Counted from the stretch's first letter, positions 6,810 through 26,895 are shown. The stretch: 51,747 nucleotides of DNA from Myxococcales bacterium (GCA_947499075.1 CANMNA010000004.1:1-51747); one strand, 5' to 3'. Translations and numbers: made by a program. Notes: generated by a model not told the origin, from the letters alone.

Positions 6810-6951
6810 CCGAGATCCCCCGCTTTGAGCGCATCTCTGCGTCGCTTCTCTCGCTGCGGCGTACCAGAGTACGCCTCGCTCTTTCAGATCCTTGTTCCTT
6901 GATCTGCATCTCAAATCGGGGGCCGCGATTGATTTCTGTGGGGAATTTGGG
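6810..6951 (+). repeat. Dispersed ~150-bp hairpin element, copy 1 (8-bp internal deletion)
   Basis: Near-identical to 16871-17018, 18211-18384 and the reverse complement of 26746-26895; central GGCGTAC-CAGA-GTACGCC hairpin. Confidence 0.95.
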
Positions 6952-6963
6952 GCGGCAATGCGG

Positions 6964-6992
6964 TTGACAAAGGCAAGCGGCAGCCGCACACT
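6964..6992 (+). promoter_or_regulatory. Putative sigma70-type promoter of tRNA-Leu
   Basis: Perfect TTGACA, 17-bp spacer, CACACT. Confidence 0.55.
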
Positions 6993-7089
6993 GCGGTCCG
7001 CTGGTGGCCCTGCGCGGGCGCGCCACTGCAAGCCAATGCGGCGGCAAATACTCGGGAATTGTCAAGTTCATGCAGGTTATCCTGTTCTT

Positions 7090-7173
7090 GCGAAAGTGGC
7101 GGAATTGGTAGACGCACTAGATTCAGGTTCTAGCGGCCGCAAGGCCGTGGGGGTTCAAGTCCCTTCTTTCGCA
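7090..7173 (+). tRNA. tRNA-Leu (anticodon CAG); CCA not encoded
   Basis: Acceptor GCGAAAG/CTTTCGC; anticodon arm CTAGA-TT CAG GT-TCTAG; long variable arm CGGCC-GCAA-GGCCG; GTTCAAGTC. Confidence 0.96.
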
Positions 7174-7227
7174 CTTCAGTTGGCTCTTGAGGTCAACAGG
7201 CTACCGCAGATCGAGTCAAAGCAGGGC

Positions 7228-7776
7228 GTGACCGCACCACGGGCACGCCCTTTGCCGTTTTGGGCCGGTTTGCCGTTTTGGGCCGGTTTGCCGTTTTGGG
7301 CCGGTTTGGTCGCTGTGACACTTTGCTGTGTCAACTGCCAGAAAGAGCCACTGACCCGCTTGATCGACACGAGCTTTGGCCACCTGGAAGCCGCTGCCGC
7401 GATGCTGGAGTCCTGCTCCGGTGACGAGCGCAAGCTGGTCGAAGCGGCGATGGCGTACCGTGCTGACCATGCTGGCGAATTTATTGCGCTGCGCCAGAGC
7501 GGAGAGAAATTGCTCCAGCAGTTGACTGAGGAGCAGCGGCGCAAAGTCGCGACCGATACACAGAATCGGGCTGCCCCGATTCTGGCACGGATTGCCGTGG
7601 CGGCGCGGCGCTATCCAGACATGTTGCGTGCGCTGGCGATGGTCCGCCCGTTGACGGTGGCCGGCACACCGCGTCTCAAGCCTGACCAAAAACCTTGGTG
7701 GACGCCCAAGGAAGTGCCTCTGCCGCCGACGTTGGACATGTTTGCCCCAGGCGCTGCTACGCCGACTGGGCATTAG
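7228..7776 (+). CDS. Hypothetical helical protein, probably an exported lipoprotein
   Basis: In-frame GTG downstream of the tRNA; hydrophobic N-terminus ending VAVTLCCVNC; sits just before lnt. Confidence 0.55.
   Translation: MTAPRARPLPFWAGLPFWAGLPFWAGLVAVTLCCVNCQKEPLTRLIDTSFGHLEAAAAMLESCSGDERKLVEAAMAYRADHAGEFIALRQSGEKLLQQLTEEQRRKVATDTQNRAAPILARIAVAARRYPDMLRALAMVRPLTVAGTPRLKPDQKPWWTPKEVPLPPTLDMFAPGAATPTGH
7251..7307 (+). repeat. Tandem repeat, 18 bp x3 (TTTGCCGTTTTGGGCCGG), encoding LPFWAG x3
   Basis: Read directly from the sequence. Confidence 0.95.
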
Positions 7777-7787
7777 CGACTGCGCGC

Positions 7788-10439
7788 GTGACGACCACGG
7801 CCCAACCACCGCGACCGCTTGTTTGGCTCGGTGCCAGCGCGACCGGCGTGCTGACGTTTTTGGCCTTTCCGGGCTGGAACGTGCACTGGTTGATCTGGAT
7901 TTGTCTGGTGCCGTTGCTGCTCGTCGCGCGCAACGCCACACCGTGGCAAGGGTTTCGCATCGGTCTGCTTGCTGGCTTCGTCACCAACGCCGGCGGCTTC
8001 CACTGGATGACCTCGATGCTGGAGGAGTTCGGCCACTTGCCGATGGCGGCGTCGTGGTCGATCTTGTCTCTGCAAGCAGTGACCCAGGGCTTGACGATGG
8101 CGGTAGGGACGGCGGCATGGCGCTGGCTGGCCCGACGCGGGGCCCGCGACAGTTTGGCTGCGTTCGTCGGTCAGTGGCTTGGCGAAGCGACTGTTCCCAT
8201 GATTTTTCCTTGGTTTTTTGGCAATGCGGTGTCGCCGGAACTGCCGATGATCCAGATCGCTGAACTCGGCGGTGTGTCGCTGGTATCCGCTGTGGTGCTG
8301 CTGGTCAATGTTGCGATCTACCACGGGTTCAAGGGTGCGGTGGAACGCAAAGCCCCGCAGTGGTTGGCGCTGGTGGGCGTGGGCACGCTGGTGGCAGCTG
8401 TCTGGCTGTATGGCTCGTGGCGCATCCAAGCAGTGGACGCAGAGATGGCGGCGGCGCCCAAACTCAAGATTGGGCTGGTCGAAGGCAACGTCGGTATTTG
8501 GGAGAAGGAAGCCAAGTACCTCGATCCACAGTCGCGCATGCTGACCAAGCGGCACAACCTGCTCAAGCATCAGCGCATGTCGGCAGAGCTGGAGCGTCAC
8601 GGCGCCGAGCTGGTGCTGTGGCCGGAGAGCGCGTACATGCCGTACGGGCCGATGCCGGTAGCCCATGCCCTGCACCACTTCCTGTTCGTAGGTGCGGGCG
8701 GCGGGATCGGCGAAGTCCATTCGGACGGCGCCGCGCACATGCAGGCGCCAGACCGACTGGGGCTGCCGCGCGATCTGGGCATGCTGGCTGGCTTGTCTGC
8801 TGGCCGCGGTGACACTTGGCGCGCGATCGATTCTGGGCGGCGGGTGCTGACAGTTTCTCCGCAAGGCAGCCGGTCCGACGCCGTGCCCGAAGGCGAATGG
8901 GCCGTTGCGACATTGGCGTCGCCGCCAGATTACTATGGTGAGTTGGCCAAGGGCTGGGTCATTGGCCGCAGTGGCAAGGCGTGGCGTCTGGCTTGGCCAG
9001 CGCAGCCGTTGCCGGGCAAGGTCGGCGCGGAACCTGCCAAGTTGGAGCCATTGTCAGGGCTGCCTCCTGTGGGGCTCGATTTGACGAGCGCAGCCATCGA
9101 CGAAAGTGGCCAAGTCTTTGCCGTAGGCCGAAGAGGCGCCATCGTCGGCTGGGACGAGGCGGGGCTGCGCGCAGCTATTTCTCCAACCACCCAAGATCTT
9201 TGGGCGATCTCGGTTGATTTGCAAGCGCGCACGTTCGTGGTCGCAGGTAGTGCCGGCACGGTGCTGACGCACGCGGGCCCTGGCTGGCAGGCCCACACCG
9301 TAGGCGGCAGCGACTGGTACAGTGCATGGACCTGTCCAAGCGGCGCCAAGTGGGTCGGCGGCCAAGGTGGGCAATTGGCCGTCGACGTCGGCGACGGTCG
9401 GTTCCGCATGCAACCCAGCTTGGGGAGCGACATCGTCGCTGGCGCCTGTGATGAGAATAGCGACGTGGTCGCTGCCGGCAAGGGCGGCCAATTGTGGCTA
9501 GGTCGGGCCGGTGGCGCCTGGTCGGCCGTTGCGGGTGCGCCGCGCAGTGATGTCGCCGCGATCACGGCGCTGGTACCCCATCCATCGCTGGCGCTGCCGC
9601 GGACCGCCAAGCGCATCGCCCCGGCACGTACGCCGCTGCCCTTGCCCGCCACTGCGCCAGACGACGTGCTGGCCGATCAGGAGTCGCCAGAAGCCGATCG
9701 CTCGACGCCGCGGCGTGGCTTTGGCGTCCCGCTGCTGTTTGGTGCGTTATCGCACGGTGCGCCGCTGTCGGCTGGCGAGAGCGGCCGCTGTGAGGACTGC
9801 TACAACTCTGCAGTACTCTTGGACAAAGACGGCGCCATTCACGCACTGCACGACAAGGCGTTCCTGCTGGCGTTTGGCGAGTACATGCCGTTTGGCGAGA
9901 CCTTTCCGTGGCTGTACGACCTGTCGCCCGAGACCAGCCGGTTTCGGCAAGGCACGCGGACCGCGCCGATTGCCTATGCGTTTGATGCCCAGCGCCAGGC
10001 GCGCTTCGGCATGCTGATCTGCTACGAAGACTTGCTGCCGCGCCATGCCAAGAAGGTCGCCGCGCACAATCCAAACGTGCTGATCAACTTGACCAACGAT
10101 GCCTGGTTCGGTCAAACCGCTGAGCCTGAGCACCACCTCAACCTGGCGCTTTTGCGCAGCGTCGAGTACCGGCGCTGGCTGGTGCGCTCGACCAATACAG
10201 GGATCAGCGTGTTCATCGACGCCGTTGGGCGGCGGGTGGCGGAGACGCAACTCACCGGTGAGGAGACGTTGCTGCGCGCGGTGCCGCTGCTCGAGTCGCG
10301 CACGCCGTATGCGGTGCTGGGCGATTGGCCATTGGTTGGCCTAGCCGCGTTGCTGCTGTGGCTGGTGTGGGGACCCAAGCGTACTGCGCCGGCAGCCAGA
10401 GCGTCCAAGAAGCGCAAGTCGTCTCAGCCGGCTGCTTGA
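7788..10439 (+). CDS. lnt: Apolipoprotein N-acyltransferase with a large beta-propeller-like insertion
   Basis: N-terminal TM helices; nitrilase triad WPES / DKAFLLAFGEY / ICYED; NLTNDAWFG, RSTNTGIS; about 340 aa extra between WPES and PLLFGA. Confidence 0.9.
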   Translation: MTTTAQPPRPLVWLGASATGVLTFLAFPGWNVHWLIWICLVPLLLVARNATPWQGFRIGLLAGFVTNAGGFHWMTSMLEEFGHLPMAASWSILSLQAVTQGLTMAVGTAAWRWLARRGARDSLAAFVGQWLGEATVPMIFPWFFGNAVSPELPMIQIAELGGVSLVSAVVLLVNVAIYHGFKGAVERKAPQWLALVGVGTLVAAVWLYGSWRIQAVDAEMAAAPKLKIGLVEGNVGIWEKEAKYLDPQSRMLTKRHNLLKHQRMSAELERHGAELVLWPESAYMPYGPMPVAHALHHFLFVGAGGGIGEVHSDGAAHMQAPDRLGLPRDLGMLAGLSAGRGDTWRAIDSGRRVLTVSPQGSRSDAVPEGEWAVATLASPPDYYGELAKGWVIGRSGKAWRLAWPAQPLPGKVGAEPAKLEPLSGLPPVGLDLTSAAIDESGQVFAVGRRGAIVGWDEAGLRAAISPTTQDLWAISVDLQARTFVVAGSAGTVLTHAGPGWQAHTVGGSDWYSAWTCPSGAKWVGGQGGQLAVDVGDGRFRMQPSLGSDIVAGACDENSDVVAAGKGGQLWLGRAGGAWSAVAGAPRSDVAAITALVPHPSLALPRTAKRIAPARTPLPLPATAPDDVLADQESPEADRSTPRRGFGVPLLFGALSHGAPLSAGESGRCEDCYNSAVLLDKDGAIHALHDKAFLLAFGEYMPFGETFPWLYDLSPETSRFRQGTRTAPIAYAFDAQRQARFGMLICYEDLLPRHAKKVAAHNPNVLINLTNDAWFGQTAEPEHHLNLALLRSVEYRRWLVRSTNTGISVFIDAVGRRVAETQLTGEETLLRAVPLLESRTPYAVLGDWPLVGLAALLLWLVWGPKRTAPAARASKKRKSSQPAA

Positions 10440-10609
10440 TCGGGCAATGTCCGCCGCTTGGCGAGCTCTTGGGCGCGCAGGATCTGCTGGCGGCGCCGCT
10501 TGCCGTACCAGTTGCGCACCGACTGAAAAACCCGGATCGCGAACAGCAGCGTCGCAGCAATTGCCAGCACCTTGCCAATGCCGAACAGATCAGGTGGCGC
10601 GGGTGGCAT
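10424..10609 (-). CDS. Small single-TM protein (61 aa)
   Basis: MPPAPPDLFGIGKVLAIAATLLFAIRVF followed by a basic tail; GGAAG RBS; overlaps the end of the upstream amidotransferase gene. Confidence 0.45.
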   Translation of the reverse strand: MPPAPPDLFGIGKVLAIAATLLFAIRVFQSVRNWYGKRRRQQILRAQELAKRRTLPDQAAG

Positions 10610-11219
10610 CCAGACTTCCTTGGCTGGCGCACCAGCGCACAACGTTTCTGGCCAAAGGCAAACCAAGCGGCGTGCCGACCGACTCAGGATGAAACTGCAC
10701 GCCTTCGGCAAGCAGCCCGGGCGCATGTAGCCCCATGACGACAGCAGGGTCATCGGCAAGCCAGGCGTGGACCTCAGCGTGGCCGTCGAGCGCTGCCGTG
10801 TTGACCACCAGGCTGTGGTAGCGCATCGCGGTAAATGGTGACGGCAAGCCGCGCATGCATCCCGTCCCAGCATGGGCGATTGGCGCCACCTTGCCATGGA
10901 CCGGCGCACTCGCGCGCACAATGTGGCCACCGAGCACTTGCGCGATTGCTTGGTGACCCAAACAAACCCCAAATATCGGGACCTTGCCGAGCACCGCCCG
11001 AATCAACGGCATGCACACGCCCGCCTGATCTGGCGCGTTGGGTCCAGGAGAAATCACCACACCCGAATATTGGGCGTCAAGCAACTCCGGCACGGTCTTG
11101 TGGTCGTTGCGAACCACGTCGAGCGTCAGCGCCAGCCCTTCTGCCCAACCAGCTTGTACGAGCAAGTCGTGCAAGTTCCAAGTGAACGAATCGTAATTAT
11201 CCAGCAACAACAGGTGCAT
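10590..11219 (-). CDS. trpG: Anthranilate/aminodeoxychorismate synthase component II (glutamine amidotransferase, TrpG/PabA)
   Basis: LDNYDSFTWNL, ISPGP, GVCLGHQ, RYHSL, GVQFHPES. TrpG and PabA cannot be told apart by eye. Confidence 0.88.
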   Translation of the reverse strand: MHLLLLDNYDSFTWNLHDLLVQAGWAEGLALTLDVVRNDHKTVPELLDAQYSGVVISPGPNAPDQAGVCMPLIRAVLGKVPIFGVCLGHQAIAQVLGGHIVRASAPVHGKVAPIAHAGTGCMRGLPSPFTAMRYHSLVVNTAALDGHAEVHAWLADDPAVVMGLHAPGLLAEGVQFHPESVGTPLGLPLARNVVRWCASQGSLDATRAT

Positions 11220-11225
11220 ACTCAA

Positions 11226-14005: not shown

Positions 14006-16771
14006 CTATTTCACGGTCACTTCGTCAAGCAAGATCACAGTGTCGTAGATCGAGTCGCCCTTATCGGTGGCGAAGAACGTCAGGTCGACTTTCTTCTCAG
14101 TGCCAGCCAAGGGCGTGATGTCCTGACACTGCTTCTGCCACGGTGTCATGAACACGCCGCCTTGATCGAAAATGGCGTCAGACGGCGACAGGCCTTTCCA
14201 GTCCTTGCCACACTTGCAGGTTGGTGAACCGGGCTCGCAAGGCGATTTACCTTCGCAGTCATAAGGGCACAGCGAGTCGATGTAAACGTTGGTCATGGTG
14301 ACCTGATTGGCGTCGGTCTTCAGCGTCGCCGTAAACGTGTCCATGAACTGCGAGCCGCACCACTCTTTGAACTCCTCGCTGTAGAATTTCCAGTAAAAGC
14401 ACAGCTCAGTTTGGGCTTTGTCGACACAGAACGGCTGGGTGAGCGAACCGTTTTGGGCCGTAAAGCCCAAGCCGGTGGAGATGATGCCCATGTACTTGCC
14501 GGCCACCGGAATCGTCACGCCCAAGCGAGAGACGACACGGCCGTCGCCGATCGGTTTCCATCCAGTCAAACTGCCACCATCCCACGATGGGTTGATGAGC
14601 GCTTGGCTCTTCAGGTTGGACTCGTCGATGCCAACGTGGCGCAAGCGTCCGCCGTACTTCGGGTCGCCGCTGCTGTTCGGCAAGGCTTGGATGGTGCTCT
14701 GGCCATTGACCAAGCCCTTGGTACCACCTTGGTCGGGCGCGCCGCTCAGGTAGGCCGCGCCTTGCTGGTAGGCATAATCCGAGTTGACGTAGTCTGAGAA
14801 GCCAACTACCGATGCCGCGCCGTTGCCCCAAAGCGTGACCGCCATCGAGCCGTTGTACATCGAGCGGCACGCGCCCAGATAGATGATCGATTGGGGAAAT
14901 GGGCTGACCAAGTGGTGCTTGAGGAACGACGGTACGAACCCATAGGTGGCATCACCGATGACTGCACGGCCAAGCATCAGGTCGGCCTGGGTGCTGTCAA
15001 CGCAGACGCCACCCGCAAGCGAGGTTTTCACGCACGTCTCGCCGGTCGGGCAGCCGGTGCCCTGCTGGTTGCAGCTGCCGTTAGACGACGAAAGTGCGTT
15101 GCAATTGACGGGTTCACCTGAAAAAATCACTTCCTGTGCGCCCTGGTGTTCCCAGTTCAAGTCCTTGTAGGCTGCCGCGTCCATGTTGCCGAACAGCACT
15201 TCGCCGTGGCCGCTGATGGCGACCATGCCGTAGTTCGCCATTTCGCGGTACCAGCGCAAGTAGGCTTGCGAACCGGTTGCAGCATCGACGACGTACGGTG
15301 GGCACTGCTTGCCCTTGAGGTCAGCGCCAAACTTGTCGGCTTCGTCGCCGCCGTACTTGGAGAATTCTGACTGAAACGGGGCCAATGCCAGTGCCCGGCG
15401 CGCGCCGACGCTGTAGCTCGGTAGGGCGGCGCCCGGACCAGGGCCGGCGTCACTGCCGGCCCGCAGGCCGTCGGGAGCAAGATTGAGCGCGCCCAACTGG
15501 CCGGTTTTGTAGCGCACCCAGACGCCGAAGCCGTTGCCGGATGCAGGACCGGCATCAGCAACCGTTGAGTCGCCCTTGAGCGCGGCAATGGCGTCGGCTT
15601 GTGCTTGCTTCCAGTCTGTGCCTTTTTCGACAGCGGCTTGGTACTCAGACTTGGTCTTAGACTGCAAGTTAACGATTTGATTGCACAATGCCTTGTCGAA
15701 CCGCGCAACCACGTCGACAACAGCGACGGCCGACCACGCTTCGTATTGCTTGATGCCGACGTCGACGTTGGCCTTGACCCGAAAGTACTTGGTCTTGGGG
15801 TCCTGTGGCGTCAGGTTCAAGCACTGAGAAAACACGGCGTCTTTCTGCACGTCGTCGCAGTTGCCACCCTGACCGCTGTCGACCAGGTTTTGGACGATGC
15901 CGCCAGCGACCGGTTTGCCGTTGCTGTCGACCTCAACCAACTGAATGGTCGTCGGGTTGATGACGCTCTTGCCGTCGCTGCCGGGCACAGCGCCGGCGGC
16001 CGAGAAGTGCACGACTAGCTTAGCATTCTCTTTGACGAACAACACGTTGGGGGTGATTTCGGGAGCACCCTCAAAGGAGAAAACCGGGTTGTAGGTGATG
16101 TGCACAGTATCGGTGACGATCTTGTCACCCTTCTTGGCGGTCACGGTGAGGTGGTTGTCGCCCTCGTCCAAAGTGATCACCGACGACTGCCAATTCTTCT
16201 TGGCGGTGATGGTGCCAGTTTTGCCGTTGGCGCTAGCCCACGAGATCTGGTCCGGATTGCCGAACGCGACGCCGGAGAGCTGGGTGTTGGCGCCGGCACT
16301 CTGAATCCACTCTCGGCCGGAAGGGCCGAGAATCTTGACCAACAATTCTTTGAAGTCGTCGCCAGCGGTCGCGGTGCCGTCGGGTTTGGCAAGCGTATCG
16401 CCACCGCTGGTGTCCTTGCCAGTGTCGGGTCCAGTGTCGATGAGGACGCCGTCTGGGCCGATTTGGACATCTTCGCCAGGGGTGTCGGTGCCGGTGTCAC
16501 CAACGGTGCCGTCAGGCGTAGCCGTTTCGCTGCCGGTGCCGCCCTTGTCATCGCCAACGCCGGTGTCGCCGTCGGTGCCGCCAACGGTCTCTGTCGTCAG
16601 GCTATCTGCGCTCACCACCTCGCCGCCGCCGCCGGTCGATGCGCTATCGTTGGTGCCTTTCACGCCATTGCCGGTGTCGTTGCTGCACGCGGCCGCATAC
16701 AGGCATGCGAGCGCGGCCCACGCCACGGTCCTGGCAGAGCGACCAATTGGCGAGCAATTTGAAAGATTCAT
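14006..16771 (-). CDS. Large surface lipoprotein with a Thr/Asp/Gly linker, Ig-like region, caspase/CHAT-like His-Cys domain and choice-of-anchor-L-like C-terminus
   Basis: Lipobox AAAC; ISGHG ... IYLGACRS ... GAASVVGF; C-terminal FYSEEF..GSQFMDTF and DKGDSIYDTVILLD. Confidence 0.65.
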   Translation of the reverse strand: MNLSNCSPIGRSARTVAWAALACLYAAACSNDTGNGVKGTNDSASTGGGGEVVSADSLTTETVGGTDGDTGVGDDKGGTGSETATPDGTVGDTGTDTPGEDVQIGPDGVLIDTGPDTGKDTSGGDTLAKPDGTATAGDDFKELLVKILGPSGREWIQSAGANTQLSGVAFGNPDQISWASANGKTGTITAKKNWQSSVITLDEGDNHLTVTAKKGDKIVTDTVHITYNPVFSFEGAPEITPNVLFVKENAKLVVHFSAAGAVPGSDGKSVINPTTIQLVEVDSNGKPVAGGIVQNLVDSGQGGNCDDVQKDAVFSQCLNLTPQDPKTKYFRVKANVDVGIKQYEAWSAVAVVDVVARFDKALCNQIVNLQSKTKSEYQAAVEKGTDWKQAQADAIAALKGDSTVADAGPASGNGFGVWVRYKTGQLGALNLAPDGLRAGSDAGPGPGAALPSYSVGARRALALAPFQSEFSKYGGDEADKFGADLKGKQCPPYVVDAATGSQAYLRWYREMANYGMVAISGHGEVLFGNMDAAAYKDLNWEHQGAQEVIFSGEPVNCNALSSSNGSCNQQGTGCPTGETCVKTSLAGGVCVDSTQADLMLGRAVIGDATYGFVPSFLKHHLVSPFPQSIIYLGACRSMYNGSMAVTLWGNGAASVVGFSDYVNSDYAYQQGAAYLSGAPDQGGTKGLVNGQSTIQALPNSSGDPKYGGRLRHVGIDESNLKSQALINPSWDGGSLTGWKPIGDGRVVSRLGVTIPVAGKYMGIISTGLGFTAQNGSLTQPFCVDKAQTELCFYWKFYSEEFKEWCGSQFMDTFTATLKTDANQVTMTNVYIDSLCPYDCEGKSPCEPGSPTCKCGKDWKGLSPSDAIFDQGGVFMTPWQKQCQDITPLAGTEKKVDLTFFATDKGDSIYDTVILLDEVTVK

Positions 16772-16870
16772 TGCGTTCTCCGAAGTGCGTGGCGAAGATC
16801 TGGGGCCAGAGCCCGGCGCGCGCAGATCGCTTTAGGGTACCCGTGAACACCGGTGTCCGCAAGCGCCTTT

Positions 16871-17018
16871 CCGCGGTCCCCCGCTTTGAGCGCATCTCTG
16901 CGTCACTGCGTCGCTTCTCTCGCTGCGGCGCACCTCAGTACGCCTCGCTCTTAGCTCCTTGCTCCTTGATCCGCATCTCAAATCGGGGACCGCGGGAGAT
17001 TTCTGTGGGGAGTTTGGG
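16871..17018 (+). repeat. Dispersed ~150-bp hairpin element, copy 2
   Basis: CCGCGGTCCCC...GGGGACCGCGG outer stem, TTTGAG/CTCAAA, and the conserved tail GAGATTTCTGTGGGGARTTTGGG. Confidence 0.95.
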
Positions 17019-17054
17019 CTTTTTGGTTCGCTGTTGCGTCCGCGCGCCAGCCAG

Positions 17055-18158
17055 CTACCACTCGTCCGCGGTCCACTCGCCTGGAACGGCGTGCAATCGG
17101 AAATCGGCGAGTTTGACCTGGAGCGGCAGGCGCTCCGCAAGCGCATCCGGCTGGTGAAACAACTCGCCGTCCATGGTGTAGGGCCCAGAAGTCCGCAGCA
17201 ACTCGGCGCTGTCCACATCGACAATGCCGCGCTGCGGGCGGTCGGCCATCATCGCCGGAATCAGCCGCACCAGCTCAGCCGGCGCCATGGCCTCGATGAC
17301 CCGCACCGAAAAGCCCGGTTGGTAGAGTTGGCGCCGAATCGCCCTAGCTGCGCCGATGGCCAGCGTCAGGTCGACCGTACATGCCGCGGCGCCCGTGTGA
17401 TCTGCAAAACTGCGGCCGTCGATCACCAATGGGGTGGTGTACGGGCCCAACTTCCATCCTTCGCGCTGCCACAACTCGCTGCCCAACAGCACGCCGCGGG
17501 TCAGCTCAGACATGAAGCGCAGCAGGCCGGCATAGCCCGCGCCGAAGCGCTCGTACAGCTCGATCGCGTGGTAGGCAACTTCAGAGCCAAACACGAAACC
17601 GAAGCGCGGCGGTGTCGGCTGGCCGAGGTACTGCCAAGACACCTCTAGCAACGGCAGTCGCCGCGCGGGCACCCGCGACACTGGCGCGTGGTCAAAGTAG
17701 CGCAGGAATTTTGCCAGCGTCTCGTGGGGCGGGCCATGAATCGCACACGTCCGGCCGACGATGTTGAGTGTGCCTCCATTGAGCAACAGCAAGCGCGGAG
17801 TGGGGGCATCGGCGGCGTGCTCTCCAAACAGCTCCCGCCGCAACCCAATGAGCGCATTGACGACGTGGTGCACCGTGCCGTCGCCGCCGACAATGCCCAG
17901 CACGTTGGCCGCTCGGGTACACAGCAGCGTGGTCAGCGCCCGGCGCAGCGACCCCAGATCATGGGTCTCTTCCCAGACGTGGGGCGCCGGCACGAGCTGA
18001 GCCAAGCGCGATCGGACACGGGCATTCTTGGTCCGGCCAGCCTTGGGATTGAGCAGCAACCCGATACGCACCGGCCGCGACGGCTGGTTGGCGGCCAACC
18101 ACTGGCCACTGGCCACGGCCAACTCGTCCTCGTTCGCGGTGCGGTGCACAGGTGCCAT
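17055..18158 (-). CDS. Diacylglycerol/sphingosine kinase family lipid kinase
   Basis: LLNPKAG, GGDGT, GGTLN and MDGE motifs. Confidence 0.85.
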   Translation of the reverse strand: MAPVHRTANEDELAVASGQWLAANQPSRPVRIGLLLNPKAGRTKNARVRSRLAQLVPAPHVWEETHDLGSLRRALTTLLCTRAANVLGIVGGDGTVHHVVNALIGLRRELFGEHAADAPTPRLLLLNGGTLNIVGRTCAIHGPPHETLAKFLRYFDHAPVSRVPARRLPLLEVSWQYLGQPTPPRFGFVFGSEVAYHAIELYERFGAGYAGLLRFMSELTRGVLLGSELWQREGWKLGPYTTPLVIDGRSFADHTGAAACTVDLTLAIGAARAIRRQLYQPGFSVRVIEAMAPAELVRLIPAMMADRPQRGIVDVDSAELLRTSGPYTMDGELFHQPDALAERLPLQVKLADFRLHAVPGEWTADEW

Positions 18159-18210
18159 GGCCGGCGACTGTGTGCGCCGGGCGTCTCGACCTGTCAACAG
18201 GCCCAGCGGC

Positions 18211-18384
18211 CCGCGATCCCCCGCTTTGAGCGCATCTCTGCGTCACTGCGTCGCTTCTCTCGCTGCGGCGTACCTGAGTACGCCTCGCTCTTTCAGTTCC
18301 TTGTTCCTTGTCGAGCGCAGCGAGCGACCCAGCACCGCGCATCTCAAATCGGGGGCCCCGGGAGATTTCTGTGGGGAATTTGGG
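18211..18384 (+). repeat. Dispersed ~150-bp hairpin element, copy 3 (28 nt replace a 4-nt segment)
   Basis: Same core as the other copies; TCGAGCGCAGCGAGCGACCCAGCACCGC replaces ATCY. Confidence 0.95.
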
Positions 18385-20560: not shown

Positions 20561-21544
20561 ATGATGCAGCAGGCTTTGGCAGCGGCGTGGCGCCAATGGG
20601 CCGGTCCGCTGTTTCGGCGTAGTGTGCGCAACCTTGCGATGATTCTAGGGTTGATCGCGCTGGTTTTCTGCGCAGTGCGCCTAGCGCCTGGAGATCCCGT
20701 CGACCACCTGCTGGGTGAGCAAGCAACGGTGGCAGAGCGTGCAGCCCTGCGGCACCGCCTGCACCTCGATGGGCCGCTGCACCGGCAATTTGGCCAGATG
20801 GTGGTCGAGATCGCCGATGGCACCTTGGGCACCTCCTATGCGGTCGCCGGCCAGCCTGTAGCAGTTAGTGCGCTGATTTGGAAGCGATTTCCGAGTACAG
20901 CTGCTCTGGCGCTCACGGCGCTGGCGATTGCAGTGACCTTGGCGCTACCGTTGGGCATCGCCGGGGCGCGGCACGCAAATCGCTGGCCGGACCACATGGG
21001 GCGACTGACGGCGCTTTTCGCAGTGTCGACGCCGGCGTTTGTCAGCGGTCCACTGGCGCTGCTCGTGTTCGCGGTGGCGTTGCGTTGGGCGCCAACGCCG
21101 GCCCACGAGGCGTCAGAACTGGCCTCGCTGGCACTACCGGCGGCGGTCATTGGCTTTGCGTTGTCGGGACGACTGGCACGGCTGCTGCGGGCCTCTCTGC
21201 TAGAGACCCTGGCTTCGGACATGGCGCTGGCGTGGCGGGCCCGCGGCGCATCGGAGCGGCGAGTTCTGTGGCGGCATGCCTTGCCTAACGCGATCTTGCC
21301 TGTGCTGACCTTGCTGGGCCTGCAACTCGCAGCGCTGTTAGGTGGCGCGCTGGTGACCGAAAAAGTGTTTGGACGCAAAGGCTTGGGCACGCTGCTGCTC
21401 GACGGTGTGGCGACGCGCGACTACGCAGTCGTGCAAGGGTGTGTGCTCGTGATCGCCGCGCTGTACATCGTGGCCTCGGCCGTGACGCAATGGACGGCCC
21501 GGCGCCTGGATCCGCGGCTGTCGCTGCCCGCAGTCGAGGCCTGA
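20561..21544 (+). CDS. Peptide/nickel ABC transporter permease (DppB/OppB-like)
   Basis: LAPGDP, RARGASERRVLWRHALPNA (EAA-like loop), TEKVF..GLG, RDYAVVQG, LDPR. Confidence 0.88.
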   Translation: MMQQALAAAWRQWAGPLFRRSVRNLAMILGLIALVFCAVRLAPGDPVDHLLGEQATVAERAALRHRLHLDGPLHRQFGQMVVEIADGTLGTSYAVAGQPVAVSALIWKRFPSTAALALTALAIAVTLALPLGIAGARHANRWPDHMGRLTALFAVSTPAFVSGPLALLVFAVALRWAPTPAHEASELASLALPAAVIGFALSGRLARLLRASLLETLASDMALAWRARGASERRVLWRHALPNAILPVLTLLGLQLAALLGGALVTEKVFGRKGLGTLLLDGVATRDYAVVQGCVLVIAALYIVASAVTQWTARRLDPRLSLPAVEA

Positions 21545-21547
21545 CCG

Positions 21548-22381
21548 ATGGCGGCGCCATGGCGGCAGCCCAGTTTTCGGTTTGGCGCCGGCTTGCTGGC
21601 CACCATTGCGTTAGTGGCCGCGTTTGGACCCTTGGTCCATGTCGGCACAGCTGGTCAGATGCTGGCGCCGCCAAGCTGGCAGCACTGGCTAGGCACTGAC
21701 GACGAAGGTCTAGACATTGCGACCCAGATCATCGCTGGCTCGCGGCTGGCATTGGTGGTCGGCGTGGGCTTCGCAACGCTGTCAGTCGGACTCGGCCTAG
21801 CACTGGGCACTTTGGCCGGCTATTTTGGGGGAGTGCCCGACTTGGTGATCAGCTGGGTGGCTGACTTGCTGCTGTGCTTTCCCGGCGTGTTGCTCGCGCT
21901 GCTCGTCGTGTTTGTCACCGATCGCGCAGGCGTGACAACTCTGGTCGTGACGCTGGCCGCCACCGGCTGGGCGGGGCACGCCCGCTTGGCACGCGCGCTG
22001 GCCGACAAGGCGCGGCAGACCGATGCGGTAGTCGCGGCGCGCTGCCTGGGAGCGAGCCACTGGCACGTCATTTGGTACTACGTGCTGCCGGACTTGGCGG
22101 GACCATTGCTGGTGCAAGGTACGCTGGCAGTGGCGACGGGTGTGTTGGCCGAGGCCAGCTTGAGCTTCTTGGGCTTGGGTCCGCAGGGGACGGCGTCGTG
22201 GGGCGCCATGCTGGAGCAGGGCGCGGCGTTGGTGCTGCGGGCCCCCCTATTGTTGCTTGCGGCGAGTGGCGCACTGCTGGCTTTGGTCACCGCCGTCAAC
22301 ATGATGGGCGATGGGCTGCGCGACGCTCTCGACCCGCGATCACCCGGCGCCAGCGGGAGTCGCTCTACAGGATCGCCATGA
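21548..22381 (+). CDS. Peptide ABC transporter permease (DppC/OppC-like)
   Basis: APPSWQHWLGTD, AARCLGAS, EASLSFLGLG, GDGLRDALDPR. Confidence 0.9.
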   Translation: MAAPWRQPSFRFGAGLLATIALVAAFGPLVHVGTAGQMLAPPSWQHWLGTDDEGLDIATQIIAGSRLALVVGVGFATLSVGLGLALGTLAGYFGGVPDLVISWVADLLLCFPGVLLALLVVFVTDRAGVTTLVVTLAATGWAGHARLARALADKARQTDAVVAARCLGASHWHVIWYYVLPDLAGPLLVQGTLAVATGVLAEASLSFLGLGPQGTASWGAMLEQGAALVLRAPLLLLAASGALLALVTAVNMMGDGLRDALDPRSPGASGSRSTGSP

Positions 22382-22625
22382 CCCGAGGTCATGGCGTTGC
22401 CTGTCACGCCTGCTGGCTTGTGCGCTTGGTGGCTCGCAAGCTCGTGCCTGCGGCGACTCGCCGCTCCTTGGTCGCAGCACGCTGTGATCTCATCTCAAGG
22501 CGTCTCTGTAGAGTGCCAGCGCTGTGGGACAGCTTGCTCGCAGTGCCGTTTTTTTCGCAAGGTCTGCTCTTTGGCGGCACAATGCGCCACAGCGGCCGCT
22601 CGACCGTGGTGAAGTGGGTGAAGTC

Positions 22626-23777
22626 ATGGATGTGTTGACCAAGGCCACCCAGGGTCCGGTGGATGCTGCGCAAGCTGCAGATCTGGCGCTTGAGCTCTTC
22701 GTAGTCGGCTACGAAGGCGACAGCGTGCCAGCCGATTATGCCGACATGCTGCGGCGCGGCCTGAGTGGCGCCATCTTGTTTCGCCGCAATTTTGACTACG
22801 ACGCGGCGGGCACCGTTGATCTTGACCAAGTCTGTGCCCATACGCAGGCAATTCACGCCTGCGCTGCGCAGCAGCCCAGTGGTCTGCCGGTGGTCTGCTC
22901 GGTCGACCAAGAGGGCGGCGCGGTGGCGCGGCTCAAGGCACCGTTTTCGCTGTGGCCACCGATGCGCCGGCTGGGCGAGCGCGGCGACGTCGATTTGATC
23001 ACCCAGGTCGGTCACCAATTGGGCCGCGAGCTGCACGCCGCGGGCTTCAACGTCGACTACGCGCCCATCCTTGATGTCGATACCAACCCGAACAACCCGA
23101 TCATCGGCGATCGGTCGTTTAGCCGCGATCCGCACGAGGTGGCCCGCATGGCGGGTGCGCTGCTGCGCGGCATGCAGGCGGAGGGCGTACTGGGCTGCGG
23201 TAAGCACTTTCCGGGTCACGGCGACACCGACGTCGACAGCCACCTGGACTTGCCGGTGTTGCCCCACGACCTGCAGCGGTTGCAAGCGATTGAGCTGGTT
23301 CCGTTTACCGCGCTTGCGCCTCAACTGCAGCTGGTGATGACAGCGCACGTCCTCTTTCCGGCGATCGATCCCGACTGGCCGGCCACGCTGGCGCCGCAGA
23401 TCCTGGGGCCACTGTTGCGCGTCGCATGTGGCTATCGCGGCGTGATAGTCAGCGACGACTTGGAAATGCAGGGCATCGCCAAAGTGTTGGGCAGCGGAGC
23501 TTGCGTGCGGCGCGGGCTGCAAGCCGGCGTAGATTTGTTCTTGGTGTGCAAGCGACGCGACACACTAGAGCAAGCTTGGCGGGCGGCGACGTCAATCCTT
23601 CAGGAAGATCCCGACAGCGCTGTGCGCGCGCGGGCCCTGGACGCGATTGGCCGCAACCGAGCAATGCGGCAGCAGTTGCGGCCGTGTTCCCCCGATGCGA
23701 GCAAGCTGCGTACCGTGCTGGCCGACGCGCAGACAGCGCGCTTGCGCGAGCGGGTGTGGGCTGGCACGCTTGGCTGA
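22626..23777 (+). CDS. nagZ: Beta-N-acetylhexosaminidase (GH3)
   Basis: DQEGG, the NagZ signature KHFPGHGDTDVDSH, and SDDLEM. Confidence 0.92.
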   Translation: MDVLTKATQGPVDAAQAADLALELFVVGYEGDSVPADYADMLRRGLSGAILFRRNFDYDAAGTVDLDQVCAHTQAIHACAAQQPSGLPVVCSVDQEGGAVARLKAPFSLWPPMRRLGERGDVDLITQVGHQLGRELHAAGFNVDYAPILDVDTNPNNPIIGDRSFSRDPHEVARMAGALLRGMQAEGVLGCGKHFPGHGDTDVDSHLDLPVLPHDLQRLQAIELVPFTALAPQLQLVMTAHVLFPAIDPDWPATLAPQILGPLLRVACGYRGVIVSDDLEMQGIAKVLGSGACVRRGLQAGVDLFLVCKRRDTLEQAWRAATSILQEDPDSAVRARALDAIGRNRAMRQQLRPCSPDASKLRTVLADAQTARLRERVWAGTLG

Positions 23778-23932
23778 CCGGCCTGTAGTGGGCACTGGGT
23801 CGCACAGGCTACCAAAGCGGATGGCAACATCTCTTGCGATCAGACAATTGCCGCCGCGCCCCCGTCTGACCCCAACCGGGCAGTTGTAACCCACTTCTTC
23901 CTGTAGACCAGCAACCCTGGAGCACCCACCTG

Positions 23933-26095
23933 ATGACCACCCCCAAGCTACCATCCTGTGTCCACGCGCTGACCTGCGCGTTGCTGGCCTTGACGCTGGC
24001 GATCGGCTGCAAGGCTCAGCCAGCGCCGCAACATGGCGCCACACCTACAGCCATGCCAACGGTTGCTGGCGCGCCCAAGACACTGTCCCCAGCCTCTGAA
24101 GAGCTCGTCGCCGACAGCACCCCTGGCGCAGCGGGGGCACTACCAGCGGGCCGACCCAGGCCAGCAGACCACCGAGGCAGTTCCGATGGTGATGACGCGG
24201 GCGACGATCTGGCCGCCGAAGCCGGTGAAGAGGACGAACGCGACTACTGGAAAGGCGTACGGTTTGATGTGACCAACTTCGATGAAGTCCTCGATTACGT
24301 CGACGTCCACTACATCGACCCCAAGCCCGATCGCCACATGGCGTGGGTGGAGGCATCCAACTTCGCGCTGCTGAGCCTGGAGCCCGGAGAGGAGCTGTTG
24401 CCGGAAGCTTTCTTCAAAGCCCGCGCTGGAACGCCAGCCGAAGAAGGGCGTCTCGATGGCAAGTCTGAGGCGTTTCAGTGCAAAGGCCTGCAGCTGGGAG
24501 GCGTTGTGCTGCACCATGTGCCTGCTGACGATTACCTCAAGGCCAAGCGTCCGGTCCGCAGGAAGGGCCGGTTGTCCGATGACGAGGTCAACACGCTACG
24601 CGAACGGTCCAAAGCACGCACACAGGCCTACCACGCGACATGGTCAGCGGTCACGTTTGATCGGCCACAGTTTGACTGCGTGATGGCCTACGTGGCACAG
24701 CGCATCAAGCAAATCAACGTGGAAGCCAAAGCCAAGAAAGCAGCCACCAAGCCGACTCAGGTGGCATCGGCAGAGAAGGTGCCGGCAGGGGCTGAGCCCT
24801 CTGTGCCAGTCAACCTGGAGGGACCGCGCCCGCCAGAGCCCAAGCCTGATCCGGCGAGTCCACAGACTGGCAAGGCGGAATCCGAAAAACCAAGGCCGCC
24901 GCAAGACTTGAATCGGGCTTGGGAGTCAGCAGCGTCTGGCTTTCTCTATGCGCTGGACCCGCACTCGTCGATCATCCCGCGCAAAGCTTGGGACGACTCA
25001 ACGGACAAGACTCAAGATTCGAGCTTTGAAGGAATTGGCGCAGTGCTGACCCAGCGCGACGATCAGACCATCGTCGAGAACCCGATGGAGGGTAAACCAG
25101 CGTGGCGCGCGGGGGTGCGGGCGGGCGACGTGATCCAGAAAGTCGATGGCACCGACGTGACCGGGTTGGCGCTGAACAAGGTCGTCAAGATGATCCGTGG
25201 CCCGCGGGCGACGCAAGTCAAGCTGACCATCACGCGTGAGAGTGAACCGGACCCGCGCGAGTACGCGATCACCCGCGAGAACATCGAGATCAAAAATGTC
25301 GACGGCAAGCTAGTGCCGGACTATCCGGGCGTGGCGGTTGTCAAAATGACCGGATTTATCCCGAACAGTACCAAGGATTTGCGCTCCATGATCGACAGGC
25401 TGGCCAAGCAGGCGCCGGACGGCAAGCTCCGTGGCCTGATCCTAGATTTGCGCGGCAATTCCGGCGGCTTGCTCAACAAGGCCATTGAAATCGCCGACGC
25501 CTTTCTAGCAGGAGGCAGGGTGGTCAGCGTGCGCAGCCGCGGCAAGGACGAAGAGGTGCACAATGCCGCGTATGCCGCGAGCGACTACAGCTTCCCGCTG
25601 GTCGTGCTGGTCAACGACGGGTCGGCGTCCGCTTCGGAGATCGTGGCCTCAGCACTCCAGGATGCCGGCCGTGGCCTTGTCATCGGCCAGCGCACCTTTG
25701 GCAAGGCCAGCGTGCAGACACTGTACGAGCCAAGCCTGCATTACGATTACTACATCAAGCTCACGGTTGCCCGCTACTACGCACCGTCGGGCTACACCCT
25801 TCAAGTCATCGGCGTGCAACCCGATATCGAAATCGCCCCACATGTCGATGGCAAGATGCCGGTCGGGTTCCGCGAGGAGAACTTGAACAACCACCTGGTT
25901 CCGTTGCAAGGCCGCGTGCCCTCGCCTTGGGCTACCGAGTTGCCGGAACTGAGCAAGTGCGCTAGAGAGCAGAGTCAGGCTGACAAGATCGCCAAGCGCG
26001 ACCCCAAGCCGCAGATTCAGCCCGATTACCAATTGTTGCGTGCGGCGGACTACATCGGTTGCCTCGCTTTGCGCCCCAAGGCGACGGCCAAATAG
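23933..26095 (+). CDS. S41 carboxyl-terminal processing protease (PDZ), lipoprotein with a long N-terminal extension
   Basis: Lipobox LAIGC; LDPHS, FEGIGA (PDZ), LDLRGNSGG, SASASEIV, TFGKASVQ. Confidence 0.92.
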   Translation: MTTPKLPSCVHALTCALLALTLAIGCKAQPAPQHGATPTAMPTVAGAPKTLSPASEELVADSTPGAAGALPAGRPRPADHRGSSDGDDAGDDLAAEAGEEDERDYWKGVRFDVTNFDEVLDYVDVHYIDPKPDRHMAWVEASNFALLSLEPGEELLPEAFFKARAGTPAEEGRLDGKSEAFQCKGLQLGGVVLHHVPADDYLKAKRPVRRKGRLSDDEVNTLRERSKARTQAYHATWSAVTFDRPQFDCVMAYVAQRIKQINVEAKAKKAATKPTQVASAEKVPAGAEPSVPVNLEGPRPPEPKPDPASPQTGKAESEKPRPPQDLNRAWESAASGFLYALDPHSSIIPRKAWDDSTDKTQDSSFEGIGAVLTQRDDQTIVENPMEGKPAWRAGVRAGDVIQKVDGTDVTGLALNKVVKMIRGPRATQVKLTITRESEPDPREYAITRENIEIKNVDGKLVPDYPGVAVVKMTGFIPNSTKDLRSMIDRLAKQAPDGKLRGLILDLRGNSGGLLNKAIEIADAFLAGGRVVSVRSRGKDEEVHNAAYAASDYSFPLVVLVNDGSASASEIVASALQDAGRGLVIGQRTFGKASVQTLYEPSLHYDYYIKLTVARYYAPSGYTLQVIGVQPDIEIAPHVDGKMPVGFREENLNNHLVPLQGRVPSPWATELPELSKCAREQSQADKIAKRDPKPQIQPDYQLLRAADYIGCLALRPKATAK

Positions 26096-26118
26096 CCGAC
26101 GCGCCCCCAAGGACCCAA

Positions 26119-26721
26119 GTGACCGACATCGCCGTACCCGAAGCCACAAGCGCTGAAGCTGCCCTGCCCTCTACCGCTGTTGCACCCGAGGTCACAGCCC
26201 TGCAGGCCGCAGTTGCTGCGTTGACAGAGCGTGTGACCGCCCTGGAAGCGCGCCTTGCCGGTAGCGCGGTTGCTGCCGCACCGGTTGCAGCAGTTGCTGC
26301 ATCGGCGGTGGCCGCGACTGCAAGCACCGACGGCATCACGGAGATCAAGGGCCTGCTCGAGTCCCTGTTCGTGGTCGCGCTGAACACCGAAATTACCAAC
26401 CACGAAGTCTTTGACGCCCAGTTCGAAGTCTTCAAGACTCTGGTTCACCACGACCGGCAAGGCTCGCCTCTGCTCGACACTGACTTGCGCCGCTACAAGT
26501 TTGCCCCATTTGTCGGTCGGGCCCGCGACTACTTGACCGACGCCGCCCGACCAGGGTCGTTTCAACTCGAGCGCGTGCTCCCCGACGTCATTGAGCCGCG
26601 CACGGAGTCTGTCAAGGTCCACGTCTTCGTGCGCAACGGTCGGCGCATGAGCCCGCCGATCAGCTTTCGACGCGATTCGCACTGCGGCGGAGCGTTCCGA
26701 ATCGAAAACTCTTCGCTGTAG
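26119..26721 (+). CDS. Hypothetical protein (Ala-rich coiled N-terminus, globular C-terminal domain)
   Basis: GTG start after AAGGA; co-oriented right after the protease; C-terminus VKVHVFV...SPPISFRRD...FRIENSSL. Confidence 0.65.
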   Translation: MTDIAVPEATSAEAALPSTAVAPEVTALQAAVAALTERVTALEARLAGSAVAAAPVAAVAASAVAATASTDGITEIKGLLESLFVVALNTEITNHEVFDAQFEVFKTLVHHDRQGSPLLDTDLRRYKFAPFVGRARDYLTDAARPGSFQLERVLPDVIEPRTESVKVHVFVRNGRRMSPPISFRRDSHCGGAFRIENSSL

Positions 26722-26745
26722 ACCGACAGCGCTCGCGCTTCGCCC

Positions 26746-26895
26746 CCCAAATTCCCCACAGAAATCTCCCGCGGCCCCCGATTTGAGATGCAGATCAAGG
26801 AACAAGGAGCTCAAAGAGCGAGGCGTACTCTGGTACGCCGCAGCGAGAGAAGCGACGCAGTGACGCAGAGATGCGCTCAAAGCGGGGGATCGCGG
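26746..26895 (-). repeat. Dispersed ~150-bp hairpin element, copy 4 (inverted orientation)
   Basis: Its reverse complement matches copies 1-3. Confidence 0.95.

Follow-up and report, generated by a model that had tools for sequence, protein, structure and literature searches.

A foldback MITE of a Myxococcota genome, its register to predicted promoters and its putative IS1380-family parent

The hairpin repeats described here are, in all probability, 150/174-bp MITEs that are moved in trans by a DDE transposase of the IS1380 family and placed 13 bp upstream of -35 hexamers. While MITEs are commonplace, single-base precision in finding promoters is unusual for a bacterial DDE element. As far as we found, promoter targeting has been published for TnGBS, ISLre2 and ISKra4 only, and the IS1380 case appears to be new.

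Copies in the window and spread of the family

Four copies, already placed at the same positions and on the same strands in a preliminary description of this DNA, lie in the window, i.e. the whole stretch of 51,747 nt that was analysed. The copies and their flanking features are as follows.

6806-6809 and 6952-6955: target-site duplication (TSD) of copy 1, GCGG
6810-6951, plus strand: MITE copy 1, 142 bp, lacking one 8-nt CTGCGTCA unit
6964-6992, plus strand: predicted promoter beside copy 1 (TTGACA 6964-6969, 17-nt spacer, CACACT 6987-6992)
16867-16870 and 17019-17022: TSD of copy 2, CTTT
16871-17018, plus strand: MITE copy 2, 148 bp
18192-18197, minus strand: predicted -35 hexamer TTGACA beside copy 3
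18211-18384, plus strand: MITE copy 3, 174-bp size class, right arm 24 bp longer
26742-26745 and 26896-26899: TSD of copy 4, GCCC (plus strand)
26746-26895, minus strand: MITE copy 4, 150 bp, the commonest form
26909-26936, plus strand: predicted tRNA-Cys promoter (TTGACG 26909-26914, 16-nt spacer, TATCCT 26931-26936)

An alignment of the four copies (A1) had a mean column identity of 81%, flanks included. The architecture noticed earlier was seen again: outer arms in which CCGCGATCCCCCGCTTTGAG pairs with CTCAAATCGGGGGCCGCGG, a central hairpin GGCGTAC-N4-GTACGCC with the loops CAGA, CTCA, CTGA and CAGA in copies 1 to 4, a 3' tail GATTTCTGTGGGGAATTTGGG on one side, and in copy 2 compensated changes of both outer arms which leave GGTCCCC/GGGGACC paired. 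The flanks of copy 3, CGGC and CGGT, match at three of four positions and form no exact TSD. Copy 1 starts 9 nt past the stop codon of a DEAD-box helicase gene (Pfam), and its right (tail) end is directed towards the tRNA-Leu promoter.

A genome-wide blastn search, suggested in the preliminary description as a check of copy number, returned 103 matches in the 2.64-Mb Myxococcota MAG to which the window belongs (G000; 61.6% complete). Of these, 84 were at least 130 nt long, and the best were 97-100% identical; chance alone would come nowhere near such a number. The element is short, non-coding and multi-copy, with lengths of 142-195 bp; internal-deletion derivatives of 29-39 bp are present, and subfamilies share the same ends while their interiors are quite different. 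In the sister genome G010, 329 left-end matches were obtained versus 0 for a reversed control pattern.

No target-site duplication had seemed evident at first sight. Counted over the 53 copies having flanks, however, exact 4-bp TSDs are present in 38; shuffled partners give 1.1 on average and at most 6. The duplicated sequence is unconstrained, the 38 exact TSDs comprising 36 different tetramers. The predicted tRNA-Cys promoter carries a MITE in G000, in G010 and in a further genome of the genus, G003, and the empty sites proposed as a check in relatives were found at this promoter in eight other genus members; the promoter has been hit independently in three genomes. TSDs, near-identity of copies and an orthologous site in occupied and empty states demonstrate the mobility of the element. 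It is a MITE, i.e. a non-autonomous DNA transposon, recognised in trans, and to this extent the former view of a structured, non-autonomous mobile element was correct.

Register to predicted promoters

Promoters were predicted by consensus (TTGACA-like -35, TAnnnT -10). In the window, the left end of copy 4 is exactly 13 nt from the start of the -35 hexamer of tRNA-Cys (26977-27050), and the left end of copy 3 is exactly 13 nt from the minus-strand TTGACA, which is located upstream of a gene with a DAGK_cat domain (frame 17055-18197, minus strand). The left end of copy 2 is directed towards the start of a 921-aa gene (14006-16771, minus strand), with a -35-like TTGCGG only 8 nt off and thus not in the canonical register. 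The predicted promoter at copy 1 begins 12 nt past the tail, upstream of tRNA-Leu (7090-7174).

Among the 53 flanked copies of G000, 19 show a TTGACA match of at least 5/6 at a distance of exactly 13 nt from the left end, against 0-2 at each of the other 59 offsets; with at least 4/6 matching positions the counts are 28 of 53 and 0-5. A TAnnnT motif follows 16-18 nt further on in 19 of the 53 copies (0-1 away from the register), and of the genome's TTGAC sites as a whole 1.8% show this spacing. At the tail end, offset 13 gave 5/52 (at least 5/6) and 7/52 (at least 4/6). The left flanks of relatives yielded 12/66 and 23/66 at the same two thresholds, and among full-length IS relatives from metagenomes TTG stands at offset 13 in 13 of the 25 flanks past the right repeat (other offsets, 0-2); visual inspection of the 10 usable left-repeat flanks gave about 1. 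A fixed register to predicted promoters is thus seen in three independent data sets. The promoter-facing end is the right repeat for the IS and the left end for the MITE. In a crude orientation test on the neighbouring genes, transcription leads away from the left end at 24 copies and towards it at 9, and 20 copies could not be assigned. No in-register TTG was present on either side of 22 of the 53 copies (~40%).

These observations suggest promoter recognition by the transposase, whether through direct reading of the -35 region or through contact with bound RNA polymerase. A similar distribution might result from survival instead of targeting, if insertion were broad, or loosely directed to TTG sites, and only promoter-upstream copies persisted. 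The ~40% of copies without an in-register hexamer would agree with this, as would the strong intergenic bias, which selection gives anyway: reconstructed empty sites are coding-like in 1 of 50 cases versus 832 of 2000 random positions (42%). Selection cannot, however, set a single-base register, and the peak is at offset 13 alone (19 versus 0-2). Other genera and full-length IS from unrelated metagenomes show this register too. Moreover, tandems with triple TSDs represent repeated hits on the same 4-5 bp. One site in G003 reads AATCA-MITE-AATCA-IS-AATCA-9 nt-TTGCCG, two 93%-identical IS copies stand head to tail with a 4-nt spacer, and MITE-MITE tandems in G010 are parted by their TSD (L018, L021, L027). 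We regard survival as quite unlikely to account for the register; post-insertion selection could add to the intergenic bias.

In the targeting process that we favour, sites are chosen non-randomly, and the MITE, like the full-length IS, would be placed with one end 13 bp upstream of a sigma70-type -35, at about position -49 and mostly in one orientation. Such placement would spare genes and leave the promoter intact, and may have let the family reach about 100 copies in G000 and more than 300 in the sister genome; it would explain how hundreds of copies exist without broken genes. Each copy would also mark a probable promoter in uncultured bacteria lacking transcript data. Correia elements of Neisseria, pneumococcal RUP and ERIC are likewise short, non-coding, intergenic foldback sequences in many copies, and the MITE resembles them in being short, intergenic, foldback and multi-copy. 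Their targets are short sequences such as TA, and we know of none with a fixed register to -35 boxes.

The putative parent insertion sequence

The earlier remark that no transposase accompanies the copies holds for the window (Pfam, eight neighbouring ORFs) and for as much of the genome as is assembled. Neither PF13701 nor P0001 had a match in this assembly, whose completeness of 61.6% does not allow absence from the organism to be concluded, and the best tblastn match in G000 (E 0.13) is not a transposase. In G003, of the same genus, an IS of 1,859 bp (L056:1165-3023) encodes a protein of 545 aa. This protein scores 197.4 bits against NF033539 'IS1380 family transposase' (cut-off 180) and 96.5 bits against PF13701 (E 1.4e-27; cut-off 34.7). 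The right end of the IS, GGCGGTGAATCCTGG, is identical to the tail of the G003 MITE (15/15), and at its left end a G010 IS starts with the same 12 nt as the MITEs of G010 and G000 (12/12).

By these alignments, MITE and IS have their ends in common. The tail, formerly taken for an unpaired structural appendage, is on this evidence the right terminal inverted repeat of an IS1380-family IS. That the ends might match those of a catalogued IS had been foreseen as an objection to the first reading; the match found is to an IS of a catalogued family, IS1380, but this IS is not itself catalogued. One intact IS with both ends and TSD was found, that of G003. The TSD is 4 bp in G000 and 5 bp (AATCA) around the MITE and the IS of G003. 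The element ends in CC...GG, which we take to be an IS1380-family trait (ISfinder). The enzyme acting in trans on the window's copies would, judging from the same-genus genomes, be of the IS1380 type. Its binding sites would be the two terminal repeats, CCGCGATCCCCC... on the left and ...GTGGGGAATTTGGG (the 'tail') on the right, and insertion would proceed via a 4-bp staggered cut.

The preliminary description had preferred an HUH/REP-like or RNA-based spread to a TIR MITE, a preference that the TSDs and the DDE-type IS ends contradict. A REP/REPIN-like element spread by an HUH (RAYT/IS200-type) tyrosine transposase acting on ssDNA hairpins would fit the strong covarying foldback and the asymmetric ends. 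To our knowledge, however, HUH enzymes make no 4-bp TSDs. The ends are inverted repeats of an IS encoding a DDE transposase, and the element measures 150-174 bp, not 20-40 bp. A copy beside a transposase, RAYT, HNH or RT gene had been considered worth looking for; around the sole Y1/HUH-like gene of the genome (C1:19262-19450), which at 22.5 bits does not reach the Pfam cut-off, a search for the element ends over 3 kb gave none, with up to 5 or 6 mismatches allowed. Spread by an HUH enzyme is therefore extremely improbable.

Transposition by an IS1380-type enzyme, the reading preferred here, agrees with known members of the family (ISEcp1, ISPme1, IS1247) in that the G003 partner transposase passes the NCBIfam IS1380 equivalog model and in the TSD of 4-5 bp. 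In its Table 2, PMC3281130 gives a DR of 5 bp and IRs of 16/13 for IS1247. A section of PMC9330008 describes the right-hand end of ISEcp1 and ISPme1 as selectable among several IR-like sites, and the right arm of the MITE likewise bears two IR-like sites. The partner transposase differs from plasmid-borne IS1380 transposases, with which it is only 24-29% identical. The published literature searched contained neither promoter targeting by any IS1380 member nor a description of this MITE family and its 13-bp register.

As stated in sections of Guerillot et al. (2014, PMC3942029; Brochet et al. 2009 cited there), TnGBS ICEs, ISLre2 and ISKra4, which have Mutator-like DDE transposases, insert in an oriented manner at a fixed distance upstream of sigmaA/sigma70 -35 sequences. 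One IR faces the promoter and the orientation is tied to IR asymmetry; for TnGBS, an RNA-polymerase-tethering model is proposed in the same sections (PMC3942029). The present family acts alike in its fixed-distance, oriented, promoter-upstream insertion but is not a member. The transposase superfamilies are unrelated (IS1380 with a modelled Tn5/piggyBac-like fold versus Mutator-like; p-MULT 3/4), the register is 13 bp here as against the 15-17 bp given there, and the present family further differs in its TSD of 4-5 bp and in a MITE derivative expanded to hundreds of copies. All published promoter-targeting cases that we could find come from a single transposase superfamily, and how they work has yet to be proven. 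A further family, unrelated to theirs, would offer an independent system for asking whether promoters are recognised by way of the sigma factor, the alpha subunit or DNA shape.

The modelled transposase (pLDDT 76) found its best structural matches in the Tn5 (E 1.7e-7) and piggyBac (E 3.9e-5) transposases, with low TM-scores of 0.37-0.47. PiggyBac has a 4-bp TSD and asymmetric ends with terminal and subterminal repeats; unlike piggyBac, the present family has no TTAA target. A relationship between piggyBac and IS1380 is stated in a passage of bioRxiv 10.1101/2021.09.26.461848.

Foldback of the element

The long foldback consists of the central hairpin and, inside the element, a second left end in inverted orientation. 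The preliminary description had named a lack of significant covariation as a finding that would speak against its reading; the foldback does covary: 94.2% of the cells in paired columns pair, versus 31-45% when slid, and 13 pairs are changed on both sides versus 2-4 when slid. It is also conserved across genera.

Such covariation might indicate a structured ncRNA or a cis-regulatory RNA motif, the repeats being gene copies or riboswitch-like leaders, and MITE-like pieces are present in two metatranscriptome contig sets. These contigs, however, cannot show transcription of the element itself. An Rfam match had been named as a finding that would speak against the first reading; at gathering score the Rfam families of the window are three tRNAs only, with no match for the element. 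The two strands are roughly alike in their folding (z -2.8 and -4.4), and by our own reading of pair types G-U is rare among the paired cells, in line with complementarity at the level of DNA. Copies stand in either orientation to neighbouring genes, and those upstream of promoters are therefore outside the transcripts that these promoters start. Subfamilies keep their ends and swap their interiors, and the TSDs show transposition. An RNA function is thus highly improbable; the foldback is a conserved property of the element's DNA and does not point to an RNA gene. Annotators should bear in mind that an intergenic repeat with a covarying 'structure' may be the foldback of a transposon and no RNA gene.

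Conservation and the covarying hairpin could also be explained by host co-option of the copies as promoter-upstream modules, e.g. as insulators, terminators against read-through or regulator sites. The fixed position near -49 is one at which upstream promoter elements act, a strong hairpin separates the next promoter from convergent or tandem genes (as at copy 1, behind its helicase gene), and the foldback persists across genera. The 97-100% likeness of copies, however, points to recent bursts and not to old conserved sites, presence or absence at the same promoter differs between close genomes, and the 29-39 bp deletion derivatives occur. Co-option is accordingly considered unlikely.

We infer that the foldback helps transposition. 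In a wider scenario, for and against which we see the case as evenly balanced, a divergent IS1380 clade of freshwater Myxococcota and of soil and peat metagenomes would have independently evolved promoter-homing like that of TnGBS/ISLre2. Its transposase would dock on promoter-bound RNA polymerase or read the -35 hexamer and integrate 13 bp upstream in a set orientation, with MITE offspring coming to occupy a sizeable share of the promoters in some genomes. The foldback (hairpin or cruciform) would then be needed at the DNA level, for efficient mobilisation, by placing the left end beside both of the repeat sites on the right.

The internal-loop module of G.A pairs proposed for the intermediate arms was not confirmed. 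These arms are mostly invariant and therefore uninformative on such a module; sister subfamilies have other interiors, and the two pairs that do covary (35-96 and 36-95) are ordinary Watson-Crick pairs.

Copies, abundance and foldback of the repeat

The preliminary description reported four copies of a hairpin repeat in the window. Sequence inspection and alignment confirmed both their positions and their described appearance. The copies and the tRNA genes of this region are:

5249-5326: tRNA-Arg-CCT
6810-6951 (+): copy 1, in which 8 nt are missing
7090-7174: tRNA-Leu-CAG
16871-17018 (+): copy 2
18211-18384 (+): copy 3, of the 174-bp size class
26746-26895 (-): copy 4
26977-27050: tRNA-Cys-GCA

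In each copy the 20-nt outer arms form a stem interrupted by one mismatch and a small bulge, the hairpin GGCGTAC-N4-GTACGCC at the centre carries a variable loop, and the 3' tail is without a partner in the foldback. In copy 2, one change in each outer arm removes the usual A-T/C bulge and makes the duplex perfect, which could be a compensatory pair within the copy or an arm-to-arm conversion. A genome-wide blastn search with copy 4 as query yielded 103 matches in the window's own metagenome-assembled genome (G000; 2.64 Mb in 144 contigs, 61.6% complete), of which 84 reach a length of 130 nt or more, and many contigs terminate within a copy. The left end was matched 73 times. A tail partner lay within 400 bp of 54 of these matches, and the resulting elements measure 150 bp in 30 cases and 174 bp in 17, with a few odd sizes; most of the remaining 19 are truncated by a contig end. 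Both size classes are recent (97-100% alike), and the right arm of the 174-bp class has TCGAGCGCAGCGAGCAACCCAGCAC... where the 150-bp class has ATCT. Four copies within 20 kb correspond to roughly fivefold the genome mean of one per 26 kb, which is unremarkable given that about 130 such windows exist in the assembly.

Covariation was assessed on an alignment of 23 copies from seven genomes with 30 predicted pairs. Standard pairing was observed in 94.2% of the cells versus 31-45% with slid partners, and 13 pairs were changed on both sides versus 2-4 in the slid controls; the complementarity of the foldback is thus maintained. The middle arms are non-complementary, as first described, and contain direct repeats, two of CTGCGTC in the left arm and two of TCCTTG in the right, but two pairs inside them are maintained as ordinary Watson-Crick pairs. 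An internal-loop module with G.A pairs was dropped as unnecessary. According to the pair types in the alignment G-U pairs are few, both strands fold (z -2.8 and -4.4), an Rfam search of the window at gathering thresholds returned nothing except tRNAs, and interiors are replaceable between subfamilies. Together these observations favour a DNA-level property of a palindromic transposon over an RNA gene. Two metatranscriptome contig sets contained short MITE-like pieces only, which are no proof of transcription. The hairpin may aid transposition or may simply reflect the origin of the element.

Target-site duplications and the IS1380-family parent

The apparent lack of target-site duplications (TSDs) in the preliminary description was overturned when 53 copies in G000 were examined with 40-nt flanks. 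Almost all of them sit between two identical tetramers, and the duplication is exact over 4 bp in 38 of 53. A register shift of one base reduced this count to 16-19 and shuffled partners to a mean of 1.1. The tetramers are diverse, with 36 different ones among the 38 exact cases, and adjoin CCGCG at the left end and TTTGGG at the right end. The 'tail' is therefore the true right terminus of the MITE, and the left end occurs a second time inside the element, inverted, as the inner arm with which it pairs. Contigs of two other lake metagenomes showed a depth of about 0-9 over the flanks and 61-903 over the element bins, consistent with a multi-copy repeat; no contig in these two metagenomes skips a copy as an empty allele would.

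Seven mini-derivatives were observed in G000, four of 39 bp (C9:25301, C58:5312, C66:865 and C17:6426) and three of 29 bp (C31:3713, C109:3693 and C64:3025). They keep just the left 13 nt, or 5 nt, fused to the last 26 nt of the element. Exact 4-bp TSDs are still present in three of the four 39-bp forms (C9, C58 and C66), and the junctions are found at short direct repeats (CCG or CCGCG) that flank the hairpin. Such forms may have arisen by internal deletion stimulated by the hairpin, or they may be mobile mini-elements.

Of 40 neighbouring genomes searched, 8 contain related copies. The same-genus genome G010 gave 329 left-end matches versus none for a reversed control pattern, and its several MITE subfamilies of 150-300 bp have the ends in common and differ in the interior. 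In a search for a full-length element behind left-end variants in G010, each of the five loci retrieved turned out to be either a solo left end or a further MITE subfamily of 150-300 bp. A Pfam search and tblastn detected no IS1380-type transposase in the incomplete G000 assembly, where a weak tblastn match on contig C21 proved to be a non-transposase ORF. The order-level search covered the same 37 genomes as the family-level search, and a fragment in G048 had no usable end. The Pfam search did identify an IS1380-type transposase in the same-genus genome G003, directly beside a MITE. This locus (L056) reads in order:

AATCA
1009-1159: MITE
AATCA
1165-3023: element of 1,859 bp
AATCA, 9 bases, TTGCCG

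The 1,859-bp element encodes at 1171-2808 an ORF of 545 aa that passes the NCBIfam model NF033539 'IS1380 family transposase' (197 bits, cut-off 180) and Pfam DDE_Tnp_1_4, and its last 15 nt are those of the MITE tail. In G010, a transposase fragment at a contig end comes after an IS left end whose first 12 nt are shared with the left ends of the MITEs of G010 and G000. The MITE would be mobilised in trans by a G003-type transposase. The duplication of 4-5 bp fits the IS1380 family, in which 5 bp are listed for IS1247 (PMC3281130, Table 2). The nearest plasmid-borne IS1380 transposases are only 24-29% identical to the G003 type, and the IS clade is therefore divergent. The repeat is a non-autonomous element with IS1380-type ends that integrates with a 4-bp stagger. 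The TSDs, these ends and the DNA-level foldback do not support the HUH-like or RNA-based spread proposed initially.

Tn5 and piggyBac transposases were the best fold matches of an AlphaFold model of the transposase (pLDDT 76), and a profile search of PDB sequences gave no meaningful match. The left subterminal direct repeat of every copy has two TGCGT units (26856-26870, minus strand, in copy 4), the motif to which the C-terminal domain of piggyBac transposase binds in its subterminal repeats. The likeness is probably a coincidence; the model of the IS1380 protein lacks a domain of this kind.

Insertion in a fixed register to predicted promoters

The left flanks in G000 showed a recurring GTCAAG. 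Counted outward from the left end, positions 14-18 were T in 37 of 53 flanks, T in 30, G in 38, A or C in 24 and 20, and C in 33. All flanks were scored against TTGACA at each offset from 0 to 59 nt, with promoters predicted from the consensus. At offset 13, at least five of six bases matched in 19 and at least four in 28 of the 53 left flanks; every other offset gave 0-2 and 0-5, respectively. The corresponding values for 52 tail flanks were 5 and 7 at offset 13, with again 0-2 and 0-5 elsewhere. A TAnnnT motif 16-18 nt beyond the hexamer position was present in 19 of 53 left flanks in register and in 0-1 off register, with a background of 1.8% among 6,583 TTGAC sites in G000. Real promoters offset a weaker -35 by a better -10 box, and by eye, in a small sample of flanks, a weaker -35 match often went with a better -10 match. 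Left flanks from records of other genomes agreed in register, with at least five matches in 12 of 66, at least four in 23 of 66, and TAnnnT in 17 of 66.

In the window, the 13-nt distance is kept by copy 4, upstream of the predicted tRNA-Cys promoter TTGACG-N16-TATCCT, and by copy 3, upstream of a TTGACA facing a gene with a DAGK_cat domain. The tail of copy 1 ends 12 nt upstream of a TTGACA ahead of tRNA-Leu, and copy 2, at 8 nt, does not fit the register.

The register extends to full-length IS relatives from diverse metagenomes with transposases 41-76% identical to that of G003. A TTG at offset 13 from the right end was found in 13 of 25 flanks, other offsets giving 0-2, with ends called by pattern and the picks at loci L169, L185 and L201, which may not be true ends, kept in the counts. 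An automatic inverted-repeat finder was uninformative on these loci because the repeats are imperfect. Only about 1 of 10 usable IS left-end flanks, read by eye, had TTG at offset 13. The IS faces the promoter with its right repeat and the MITE mostly with its left end; both MITE ends resemble the IS right repeat. A gene-orientation classifier, crude and with many undecided cases, can be read as a weak hint only. MITE and IS thus share a fixed 13-bp register to predicted sigma70-type promoters, with an orientation bias.

The transposase may recognise the promoter by reading the -35 region. Alternatively, it could contact promoter-bound RNA polymerase, a model put forward for TnGBS from the analogy with Ty3 (PMC3942029). 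The enrichment of -10 boxes at 36-42 bp from the cut, a distance beyond the reach of a simple target-site motif, speaks for recognition of the whole promoter. A complex prediction from the transposase alignment and sigma70 region 4 of G003 (score 0.00, mark 0.32) spoke neither for nor against binding.

Repeated use of sites and known systems

The clearest case of targeting is the orthologous tRNA-Cys promoter, which is present without insertion in eight other members of the genus. It is occupied by the MITE of the window in G000, by a different MITE subfamily in G010 and by a full-length IS in G003. The distance from element end to -35 is exactly 13 nt in all three, as compared by eye, with the DNA-level alignment within the genus aligning the tRNA alone. 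The same sites are used repeatedly, and several tandem arrangements can be explained by repeated hits on one site, namely the triple AATCA of G003, the IS pair of metagenome contig L180 and MITE-MITE tandems in G010 with their own TSD between them. L180 (3049 nt) holds two IS copies, 93% identical, head to tail with a 4-nt spacer. The metagenome contig L169 (1961 nt) has identical 127-nt ends and assembles as a circle in which right and left IS repeats lie a few bases apart. The circle and the L180 tandem could reflect either repeated targeting of one site or circular and tandem transposition intermediates.

The insertions avoid genes, with 1 of 50 reconstructed empty sites coding-like versus 832 of 2000 random positions. 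A preference for very strong promoters was not apparent, as an upstream copy was found at only 2 of the 27 tRNA genes detected in G000, both in the window.

As a MITE of IS1380 type the element itself is of an ordinary kind; the single-base promoter register common to it and its parent IS clade is above the ordinary. Oriented insertion upstream of promoters, 15-17 bp from the -35 box, is described for TnGBS ICEs, the ISLre2 family and the ISKra4 group, all with Mutator-like transposases, and is called 'unique' and 'atypical' there (PMC3942029). The MITE and its IS1380 clade differ in their register of 13 bp. Promoter homing seems to have arisen in bacteria a second time here, by convergence. 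A literature search returned no description of the MITE and no paper connecting IS1380 with promoter targeting; the insertion-site lists in the supplement of PMC3942029, outside its coverage, could hold related cases. New for the MITE are its parent family, the statistics on its TSDs and its targeting.

In several tRNA promoters of the genus, a CACACT or TACACT -10 box is followed by a conserved TCCGC (window 6987-6992; tRNA-Cys of relatives at loci L154, L157, L162 and L163), which may be a discriminator-like element of stable-RNA promoters.
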